Virus record (IMG/VR): IMGVR_UViG_2531839675_000021
Direction: 5' to 3' (one strand)
Origin: a virus
Taxonomy: Duplodnaviria > Heunggongvirae > Uroviricota > Caudoviricetes
Length of the DNA: 4,237 nucleotides
In this document: positions 1 to 3,000 of the stretch, piece by piece
Layout of the letters: every line of letters starts with the position of its first letter
How positions within the stretch are numbered: position 1 is the first letter of the stretch
Program-made: the position numbers

Positions 1-3000
1 TCAAATGACCAGTTTTTTCCATTCCTTACCGCGTGCGTCGTTGTAAATATCGGTCATTTTTTGATTCGAATGGCCTAGCAAAATTTTGGTATCAACCCCC
101 TGCTCTCTGAACAATCGCTCTGATAAAGATCTCTGCTCATGGAAAGAGGGAGGGGTGCCATTAGCACGCCAGTTGTAATCCACAGAATCCCGGGCTTTTT
201 TAAATGCAACGGTTAATGTTGCTGGCTTAACCATCCCGCCGCGCTTAGCTGTCCCTTTCGCGTGATGGTGGTGCAATAGCCACGGACTAAGAACGCAATC
301 GCGGCAGGATGACACCACATCATCCAGGGTGAGATTTAATTTATCGCAACGCAGAGCCAGAGGGATGGCAATCCGGGTTCCTGTTTTTTGCTGTTCGACA
401 TGAAGATAACCATCCCGGATATCCGAAAATTGCATTTTGCAAATATCTGAAAGGCGCTGGCCTGTCATCAGTGCCAGCAGCATACCGCGCTGTAAAAAGT
501 AACCATCCTTTTCCGCTGCGTTATAAATCATCATCCACTCATCAAAAGTCAGTCGCTGTCTTGATATCCGCACCTGCGGTTTTTTTGCCGATTCTGCAGG
601 GTTAAAGCCTGGCGGGACATCGCCCGTTTGCTGAGCTTCCCGGAAAACATCGATCAGTACTTTCCTGAAAATTTGTCCCATTCTGTTATGTCCTCTGGCC
701 TTGTACTCTTCCAGTACTGATACCACATCTTTTACGGTTATGGCATCTAACGGTCTGGTGCCAAAACGTTCATCAAATACCCTGAGAGGGGCCGCTTTCT
801 GTTTCAGCGTGTTGAGTTTGATCTCGCCGTTTTCATATCTTTCCTGTTGAATTTTTCTGTAATTATTCAGAAAAATGGTAACGGTTGATGAACCGCCGGT
901 ATCACTAATAATTTTCTCCTGCAGACTGAGCATTTGTTCCATTTGCTGCCGGGCAAGACGGCTGTTCGCTTCTGCTGCAATAGTTTCTGCCAGTTTCTGG
1001 TCAATACTGCCGAGACCGTGATTTTTGCCTGTTATGGGATGCCTGTAACGCCAGTAAACTTTGTTATTTCTTTTGTCAAAATACGGAGATAATCCCGGAA
1101 CATCGGTTTTATATTTTCGCGGGCGCGCCATCTTCCAGTATCCTCTTCAAAGCAGGGTGATCTGTGGCGATCACCTCCGGCTTGTTTACCATTCCGACAA
1201 AGCGAGCTTGCGGATCCACTCGCCAGCGTCTTCCAACTTTTTTGGGGAGAGGAAATATCATTCCGGCTTTAGCGTATTTACTTAACGTACTCGGAGTTGG
1301 GACCGGTTCACTGAATTCCTCTTTTGCCCACTCAGTGAGCAGAATAAGTCTTGCCATGAGCGTCGTTCGCTAATCATGGTCGCCGCCACTATAGCTGGTG
1401 GGCAACGACCGGGGTTGAACATTAAAAATCAGCCTGATTCGGGATCAGTTTTTGCCAGATAACTGAAACGTATTTTGCCTGGTAACGGGCGTCATCAAGT
1501 GCATTATGGCGCTCACCTTCGAATGGAATAGCCGTTCTGGCATCGAAGTCTATGGCTTTCCCCAGCTCAACGATTGTGCGTACATCGCGATCGTTGTAGT
1601 AACGCCACGGGCAGGGGATCCCCTGCCGTTCGTATGAACGGCGCAAAATCGTGTTGTCGAAGTTGGCTCCATTTCCCCAGACCTGAACAAAAAATTCACC
1701 GGAGTTTTCGTCGATAAATTCCCGCAATTGTAACAGTGCATCATCTAACGGGATTTCATCGGTCATAATGGCAGATTGCGCTTCGCGTGATTGCTTAAGC
1801 CACCATTTAATGGTGTCCCTCGCCGTGTGCTTTCGTGTTGTGTGCCTGCTTTTTACCACGTCAGGCGAGGTGGTCCCCGTTATTCCCCAACAACAAGGAT
1901 CTTGTTAATCTGGATATCCCCAACAACAATAAGAGTATTGAATGTGATCGCTGAATTAACGGCAGCAATGACGGCTATTCGTGAAACCGCCCAGATTGCA
2001 AAACTAATGAACGAGGCAAAAACTCAAGCTGAAGTAAATGCGGCTATTGGTGAACTGAACTCAAAGCTTGCATCTATTCAGCGCGAATGCGTGTCTCTCG
2101 TTGAGCTGGTGGGCACTTATCAAGAAATAAATGCTTCTCTCAAAGCTAAAATTGCAGAATTTGAAAACTTTGAGGCTCAGACGGAAGGTTATATCCTTAG
2201 CCAACTTGAGTCGGGAACTTTTGTGTACTCGAAGGAGGTAACCGTGAACGGCGGCAGCATAATCATGCATCTTTGTCCAAAATGTTTTGGACAAAAGATA
2301 GTATCGATACTTCAGCCATTCCCGGTTAGAGAATATGAATTTTTTCATAAAAGCAGGTGCCTGTACTGTGAAAATCAGTTTCTTATGAATAAAAATCCGG
2401 ATTACGTATCACCTCCATCTATTGAAGAGTTGGCCAGAAAACTGAACGGCAATCTGTAGATTTTTACTGTTATGGATATCCAGATTGTTAAAGAGCATGC
2501 CGGATGCTTGCTTGTGTCCGGCGCGTGTGCACCACTCTCCCCCCGTGGAGGATTCCTTAATTACCAGATTTCATTAGTCAGAGTTTCTTGCTAACCAGCG
2601 ACGCGCGCCAGATTCGGTTTTAAACGTTTTGCTTTTGGTATACGTCATCGCGGTGAACGTGCCGTCCTGGTTGGGAAACACGCCGCACACCAGAGATTCG
2701 TTGTTGCCAAGATCAAGAGTATCCATGCTGACCTCATATCCCCTTAACGCCGGGGTAGCGGAACAAAAACCTGCTGCATAGTTAAAGTTGAACCCTGCCG
2801 TCATGTTCTTACGCCTCGGGCTGGCTACTTAATCCCTGACCACTGCCGGGTAACTCTAGGTATTGCCCTGTATTGTGTGGGACGGGATGGGTTGGTATGG
2901 GAAAACTATAGGAAATGCCTAATTGCTTGTCAATAGGCTACGCCTAATGATTTGGGTGCGACCTAATAGGTGATGGTTTGTGGGAGAGGTAGTAGGAGTT

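Follow-up and report, generated by a model that had tools for sequence, protein, structure and literature searches.

In this study, we analyzed a 4,237-nucleotide stretch of DNA from IMG/VR virus record IMGVR_UViG_2531839675_000021 (the whole stretch is called the window below), which represents the left arm and immunity region of an Escherichia coli lambdoid (Rac/Qin-like) prophage and holds the same genes as the RefSeq annotation of E. coli O157:H7 strain EDL933. Its main subject is the gene at 1944-2459 on the plus strand (171 amino acids (aa), GTG start), annotated in EDL933 as a 'hypothetical protein' (WP_000559928.1) with identical coordinates and GTG start, and called an orphan gene in a preliminary description of this DNA. 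Judged by sequence and profile homology, this gene, so far unnamed, belongs to the Rip1 ('ring interacting pore 1') antiphage family, which was described recently. The AT-rich stretch that contains it is likely to be a self-contained accessory cassette ('moron') of the prophage, encoding a Rip1-type protein and composed of a conserved leader of ~100 nucleotides (nt), one gene and a conserved 3' block.

Membership in the Rip1 family and proposed function

First, homology searches placed the gene product in a large family. It matched phrog_1244 (E=1e-57) and 109 relative clusters in Enterobacterales, all of them unnamed, and the family profile collected 3,313 clusters at 50% identity from a library of 1.8 billion proteins, a superfamily that includes Rip1; thus, the orphan label did not hold. 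Among solved structures, the profile matched only Rip1 (PDB 9oox_L, E=7.8e-24, positions 6-152, almost full length), which was also found with the single sequence (9oox, E=3.6e-7), and hhalign gave 99.0% to HK446 Rip1 and 99.3% to JBD30 gp30 over ~145-150 columns. Second, the AlphaFold2 model (predicted local distance difference test score 91.5) had helices at residues 3-23 and 28-79 and beta strands at 84-150. In this predicted fold, the two long helices are N-terminal, and Cys111, 114, 139 and 142 belong to a beta/zinc-ribbon domain at the C-terminal end. The two parts expected of a Rip1-type fold, an N-terminal helical half and a C-terminal ring-contacting domain, were both present in this model. 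Foldseek ranked 9oox_M and 9oox_L at the top (probability 1.0, E=7.4e-7, template modeling score 0.70 on the target and 0.54 on the query, 28% identity), and the next PDB match had E=0.13, which left 9oox as the only significant entry. C111, C114, C139 and C142 were invariant in 43 homologues, and the four cysteines, a VY motif and a SILQ motif were common to HK446 Rip1, HK620 HkaP and JBD30 gp30; the CxxC...CxxC quartet as a family criterion comes from our alignment and not from the literature. Third, like other members of the Rip1 family, the gene is a single small one (171 aa) borne by a prophage, here a lambdoid one. Searches of the gene product against Pfam, NCBIfam and PADLOC (a 2023 copy, which predates the Rip1 report) yielded just sub-threshold coiled-coil noise, and its model had no significant match in the viral fold library BFVD.

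In a review (PMC13434031), Rip1 is described as a prophage-encoded single protein that is non-toxic alone and has most of its relatives in prophages. Phages that escape it carry mutations in the portal or small terminase, and its ring consists of 12 monomers around an 11-mer small terminase. The N-terminal part of Rip1 forms an amphipathic helix and the C-terminal half touches the phage ring; the complex gives rise to a pore, by which infection is ended prematurely (PMC13434031; supported by PMC13601566 and PMC12908700). PDB entry 9oox is a cryo-electron microscopy structure of HK446 Rip1 with the T6 small terminase. By homology with HK446 Rip1, the window's protein would be made in the lysogen and would be harmless by itself. 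During late gene expression of another phage, its C-terminal zinc-ribbon/beta domain may bind the small terminase or portal ring; this phage ring would template a Rip1 ring, the N-terminal helices of which would open a pore in the inner membrane, and the cell would die before progeny matured (abortive infection). More speculatively, leftward early transcription from 2933-2905 could run antisense through the gene and lower the Rip1 level when the prophage itself is induced.

Several points weigh against the reading of this stretch as a Rip1-type cassette. Identity to characterised Rip1 proteins is just 25-30%. The predicted function derives from homology, and the Rip1 mechanism as used here comes from one review (PMC13434031) and the title of a PDB entry. 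The N-terminal helices were no more amphipathic than shuffled controls (maximal hydrophobic moment 0.44 at residues 7-24, equalled by 28% of shuffles), and no transmembrane segment was predicted in the product. A consensus promoter for the gene was not found: the scan for sigma-70 consensus promoters upstream of it was negative, and the best candidate by eye was TAATCT at 1905-1910 with a poor -35 element (~6/12 positions); in addition, the canonical terminator of the cassette is replaced in the window. As for composition, the island was not significant after scanning within the window alone, and the host benchmark was taken from EDL933 rather than from the window's own genome.

Since coiled coils and zinc ribbons are generic modules, a protein with the Rip1 fold might also do another job, as a zinc-ribbon DNA-binding regulator or as an exclusion factor other than a triggered pore. 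The low identity to tested Rip1 proteins and the ordinary hydrophobic moment would suit such a role, and the conserved palindrome-containing motif that brackets the gene (see below) is a possible target of a DNA-binding protein. We consider this explanation unlikely, because the homology is full-length (99% by hhalign) and includes the N-terminal helical region, the type of context is the same as that of tested Rip1 genes, and no DNA-binding family was matched in Pfam or NCBIfam. With the Rip1-type reading, a 'hypothetical protein' would receive a testable function, a pore triggered by phage assembly rings. The exact protein is widespread in public assemblies, the O157:H7 lineage among them, and the proposed function would be relevant to phage therapy and to O157:H7 biocontrol.

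Base composition and exchange of modules

The preliminary description had noted by eye that the gene was much richer in A/T than its flanks, that it held two A/T-rich runs (both present, at 2279-2310 and 2387-2414) and that the repressor gene looked AT-rich as well. Computed values confirmed the direction of the first statement: the guanine plus cytosine (GC) content of the gene was 41.9% (39.5% at third codon positions, GC3), in comparison with 46.3% for the integrase gene (1-1131), 49.4% for the excisionase gene (1109-1357), 48.6% for an exonuclease remnant (1422-1823) and 50.2% for a DUF1391 gene (2574-2804), all four on the minus strand. The size of the difference had been overstated, as the gap to the flanking genes was 4-8 points. 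The repressor gene racR (3042-3518, minus strand) was indeed AT-rich (GC 42.6%, GC3 37.1%) and forms a second island, and the cro-like gene (3643-3966, plus strand) in the AT-rich immunity core was equally so (GC 42.9%, GC3 31.5%). The ydaT/cII-like gene (3950-4237, plus strand, continuing past the window end) had a host-like 52.1%, and the whole window had 46.3%. Within the Rip1-family gene, the 3' 204 nt (2256-2459) had 36.8% GC vs 45.2% in the 5' 312 nt (p=0.07); this part encodes most of the C-terminal domain, and it is here that the protein alignment varies most.

Nominal Fisher tests separated the span 1930-2500 (40.6% GC) from the rest with p=0.004 and the open reading frame (ORF) from the rest with p=0.034, and the lowest-GC 571-nt stretch of the window begins at 1922; the GC minimum of the window belongs to the region pointed out earlier. 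When islands of all positions and lengths were scanned, the best one (2256-2495, 35.4% GC, log-likelihood ratio 6.2) was equalled by 33% of triplet shuffles, and binary segmentation did not split the window by composition. Thus, the window alone cannot separate a shift from chance. The dip could then be accidental or driven by amino acid usage (a coiled coil rich in K, E, N, I and A) in a gene that has the same history as its neighbours, a view in line with the scan and segmentation, with the integrase gene lying just 4.4 points above the gene, and with a GC content of 0.349 at second codon positions. On the other hand, GC3 was low too (0.395 vs 0.486 in the four flanking genes, nominal Fisher p=0.039), and the homology breakpoints described below coincide with the island. 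Replication among relatives largely refuted this explanation, which we regard as highly improbable: GC of the homologue was below that of the flanks (+/-2 kilobases (kb)) in 17 of 17 loci from several genera, by 5.5 points on average, and in 52 of 53 unique cassettes on viral contigs, and unrelated, non-Rip1 cargo in the same slot showed the same offset in 23 of 25.

The host benchmark consisted of 42 core genes adjoining the equivalent prophage of EDL933 (GC 52.5 +/- 2.3%, GC3 55.3 +/- 4.5%). Relative to these, the Rip1-family gene was 10.6 points lower in GC, with z-scores for GC and GC3 of -4.7 and -3.5, respectively; the values were -4.4 and -4.0 for racR and -4.3 and -5.2 for cro, and the exonuclease remnant, DUF1391 and ydaT genes were <2 standard deviations from host core genes. 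In tetranucleotide distance to the host, a comparison that the preliminary description had suggested, the cassette (z=+3.1) and the racR-operator region (z=+4.7) again stood out, the other five segments having values of +0.2 to +2.2. The host benchmark and the replication across loci therefore settle the compositional shift, unlike the window alone. In other words, the dip is too weak as proof in one 4-kb window, yet highly reproducible among relatives. For an accessory gene of a prophage, a dip in GC is in itself ordinary.

The deviation from host core genes and the tetranucleotide distance of the cassette would also be expected if the gene had arrived recently from a low-GC donor outside Enterobacterales and had not yet drifted to host composition. 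This appears quite improbable. Homologues with 45-98% identity occur throughout Enterobacterales prophages, where family GC is always 40-46%, and the exact protein is indexed in ~9,000 blocks of a public assembly collection, every examined contig being the potC-adjacent prophage. The Pseudomonas phage homologue has 55% GC within flanks of 65% GC and thus tracks its host. The low GC of the gene family is a constant negative offset in every host tested, and an offset of ~5 points recurs for cargo of this slot. The dip is therefore no sign that the gene was acquired recently from a donor of low GC.

Separate acquisition of modules, which had been proposed from composition, is supported by sequence comparison, and by homology breakpoints rather than by composition. 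Positions 1-1819 are 100% identical to PPompW prophages, which have a full-length exonuclease gene and no Rip1-like gene, and positions 1413-4237 are 100% identical to the potC-adjacent prophage of O157:H7. The int-xis arm is hence of PPompW type and the remainder of O157:H7 potC-prophage type; 1413-1819 is common to both, so that the crossover probably lies there. None of 5,426 complete E. coli genomes contained at least 80% of the window in one piece. In blastn comparisons (window against loci L023 and L002), PPompW homology stops at 1819 and homology to UC4315 restarts at 1820. The prophage of strain UC4315 has an intact exonuclease gene, DUF1482 gene and dicB, followed downstream by a copy of the Rip1-family gene with 97-98% identity, and relative to this prophage 2,948 base pairs are absent from the window at the 1819|1820 joint (the exonuclease N-terminus, the DUF1482 gene, dicB and part of the spacer). 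The joint is thus a deletion joint, the ORF at 1422-1859 is a pseudogene remnant, and its extension and GTG start are fortuitous. The remnant retains approximately the last 133 codons of a ~823-aa 3'-5' exonuclease: its Pfam Rv2179c-like match is limited to profile positions 47-177 of 177 and its phrog_2082 match to positions 685-823 of 823. The EDL933 copy is flagged in RefSeq as a pseudogene 'missing N-terminus'.

Further to the right, a sharply delimited segment, 1836-2496, was found again at ~93.5% identity in phage PhiR29_1 and in a number of E. coli genomes (321 records fell in the 90-95% identity band, and the sampled members all had those ends). In PhiR29_1, the segment sits between a yfdP-like gene and cI, neighbours unlike those in the window, and homology to the PhiR29-type cassettes stops at 2496. 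Of the 5,426 complete E. coli genomes, 682 had the cassette, which was seen in two or more prophage backgrounds, and the immunity core (2739-3973) was 86.8% identical in another phage. Altogether, breakpoints at 1819|1820, 1836, 2496, 2539 and 2739 bracket both AT-rich islands. Three units, namely the cassette, the int-xis-exonuclease arm and the racR-cro immunity core, are found in other phages independently of one another. Presence, absence or replacement among related phages, as in morons, was evident: PPompW lacks the gene, and ~25 unique cassettes have other genes in its place. A 32-nt piece of the leader (1843-1874, TGCCTGCTTTTTACCACGTCAGGCGAGGTGGT) was 97% identical in PPompW prophages, which are without the Rip1-like gene; the PPompW copy is situated between ydfC and the early-left gene that follows (L002 6067-6099).

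A conserved frame with alternative cargo and the remaining features of the window

The cassette 5' block, or leader (1843-1943, plus strand), ends at a ribosome-binding site (AAGAG, 1931-1935) and the GTG start. The ORF is bracketed exactly by a 26-nt inverted repeat (81% complementary), the left arm of which occupies 1907-1932 and the right arm 2461-2486. The perfect core of the repeat, AATCTGGATATCC, lies at 1907-1919 in the left arm and at 2474-2486 on the minus strand in the right arm; this 13-mer occurs exactly twice in the window, a number of matches found in none of 200 shuffles, and contains the palindrome GGATATCC. The conserved 3' block (2461-2496, plus strand) consists of the right arm followed by GTTAAAGAGC. 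In addition, the leader holds two perfect direct copies of a 13-nt sequence, TCCCCAACAACAA, one at 1884-1896 and the other at 1917-1929 (33 nt apart), both of which are conserved across genera. In most relatives, a rho-independent terminator (AAGCGTCC-N4-GGGCGCTTTTTT) directly follows the 3' block, whereas the window lineage has in its place a hairpin without T-run (2499-2522, GCCGGA-N12-TCCGGC), read from the sequence and alignment; the terminator scan makes no call there.

The inverted repeat was conserved in Citrobacter, Scandinavium, Kosakonia, Symbiopectobacterium and Enterobacter loci, and it was kept in several genera despite a protein identity of just 46-61%. Repeat, leader and 3' block were all conserved in most genera sampled, the Trabulsiella locus being an exception. 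In other-genus loci with a recognisable leader, identity to the window was 78-85% for the leader, 66-71% for the ORF at the nucleotide level and 51-59% for the proteins. The idea that the leader folds into an RNA structure was rejected (-6.8 kcal/mol by RNAalifold, almost no covariation), and pairing of the repeat arms as an RNA stem was unsupported, as variants in one arm lacked compensation in the other. These uncompensated variants, together with the lack of a convincing RNAalifold structure, suggest that the motif is a DNA-level site. A role as an invertible switch of the Hin/Gin/Fim type was also rejected: the allele inverted in silico was found at no place with at least 80% query coverage in the 5,426 complete E. 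coli genomes, and no invertase gene adjoins the cassette. An operator, a self-immunity site and a recombination site are possibilities for the repeat.

Scanning viral contigs with both arm sequences revealed 135 cassettes, 80 of which were unique. Most of the unique ones contained Rip1-like genes, and ~25 contained unrelated genes in the same frame, that is, between the leader and the 3' block GGATATCCAGATTGTTAAAGAGC with its terminator (for example, IMG/VR loci L034, L041, L188, L195, L196, L205 and L033). One alternative cargo, phrog_6315, is a protein of 150-172 aa with two hydrophobic, apparently membrane-spanning segments and a small proline-rich ORF ahead of it; a second, phrog_5286, is a soluble protein of 148-151 aa, and the third is a single ORF of 98 aa. 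The searches made of Pfam, PADLOC and the PDB gave no match for any of the alternative cargos. Fels-2 carries an unannotated homologue of cargo family B (L209 3501-3929, plus strand; 35.7% identity) on the strand opposite to the early operon, overlapping an annotated minus-strand 'hypothetical protein' that is possibly a miscall. The GTG start was kept in almost all Rip1-like alleles of the subfamily (one has TTG); in cargo families B and C, which occupy the same conserved frame, the start codon is ATG. A GTG start may limit how much of a potentially toxic protein is translated.

Tentatively, and with some doubt, we propose that the leader, the 3' block and the AATCTGGATATCC repeat might constitute a reusable expression/exchange frame beside the immunity region of enterobacterial lambdoid prophages, into which different single-gene or otherwise small antiphage cargos (Rip1-like, phrog_6315 and phrog_5286) would be swapped. 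The latter two would then be new defence genes, and the repeat a functional DNA site, either an operator or an aba-like self-immunity element. Of all the results, this conserved frame and its alternative cargos most deserve follow-up. They offer an inexpensive means of nominating candidate defence genes, namely by their allelic replacement of one already known.

Regarding its surroundings, the cassette has the early-left operon on one side and the immunity region on the other, and both of these are on the opposite strand. Among 10 loci from other genera, 8 had a helix-turn-helix repressor of varying type as the adjacent gene, convergent with the cassette, and early-left genes were on the other side of the cassette in those loci. 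The Rip1 homologues in HK446, HK620 (hkaP) and JBD30 are likewise solitary genes that face the opposite way from their neighbours.

As for the other features of the window, the lambda-type integrase matched Pfam Arm-DNA-bind_1 and Phage_integrase and was 100% identical to PPompW intE, and the excisionase matched Pfam Exc (E=1.3e-7). The DUF1391 (YdfA/YdaF-like) gene of 76 aa matched Pfam DUF1391 (E=6.6e-30) and phrog_751; its start is ambiguous, as phrog_751 aligned from residue 9 of the 76-aa ORF and RefSeq has the last 50 aa. A putative strong leftward early promoter, TTGACA-17-TATAGT (2905-2933, minus strand), was found by the promoter scan with 11/12 matches, and the same scan gave another promoter-like site near the cro-like gene (3586-3615). 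The RacR-type prophage repressor was identified by NCBIfam TransRepsrRacR (E=8.8e-74), the YdaS/Cro-like regulator by Pfam YdaS_toxin (E=3.8e-30) and P22_Cro, and the YdaT/CII-like gene by Pfam YdaT_toxin and phrog_163. No Rfam RNA family was found anywhere in the window at E<=1, and thus no DicF-like small RNA.

Comparison with known systems

The closest characterised counterpart is HK446 Rip1 (gp37; PDB 9oox), which resembles the window's protein in size (164 vs 171 aa), in the layout of helices followed by a beta/zinc-ribbon domain, and in the four cysteines and the VY and SILQ motifs. Both are encoded by a single gene on the strand opposite to a lambdoid early-left operon, with GC below that of the flanks (39.6% vs 44.6% for HK446). 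On the other hand, identity between the two proteins is 25-28%, and function has been tested for HK446 Rip1 and is predicted for the window's protein. HK446 Rip1 is located between N and an anti-restriction gene, unlike the window's gene, which lies by DUF1391 and the repressor, and it is without the AATCTGGATATCC inverted repeat and the conserved leader.

Homologues were also present in Pseudomonas Mu-like phages (JBD30 gp30, DMS3, MP42 and D3112 orf25), with ~30% identity over 89% of the protein and 99.3% by hhalign. These are again single genes on the opposite strand, with GC 10.6 points below the flanks; they differ in being in the late region, between small-terminase-like and large terminase genes, and in a host of 65% GC. 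HK620 HkaP, which has a long-standing annotation as 'putative superinfection exclusion protein', showed 28.8% identity over 90% of the protein by tblastn and has the same orientation against the pL operon, with other flanks (between cIII and hkaQ/N). We know of no functional data on HkaP, and a literature search for 'hkaP' returned unrelated papers only.

With regard to the repeats, a precedent for functional non-coding repeats at such genes is provided by BstA of Salmonella prophage BTP1 (Owen et al., 2021; PMC8585504). This prophage-borne protein causes abortive infection as a one-gene system, and a short repeat-containing DNA element at its locus, aba, gives the prophage self-immunity. BstA blocks DNA replication and has no sequence or fold relationship to the window's protein. 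The repeats differ as well, since those of aba are direct terminal repeats overlapping the start codon, whereas the window's is an inverted repeat bracketing the gene.

Finally, the cassette may be compared with morons in general. In the concept of Hendrix and Juhala, a moron is an extra gene of a lambdoid phage that lies between conserved neighbours and has an atypical composition. The cassette is similar in its insertion between conserved neighbours, in a composition unlike that of those neighbours, in being present or absent among related phages and, in its relatives, in having its own terminator. It differs from morons in that no consensus promoter was identified and in that its flanks form a conserved, reusable 5'/3' frame shared by at least three unrelated cargo families.

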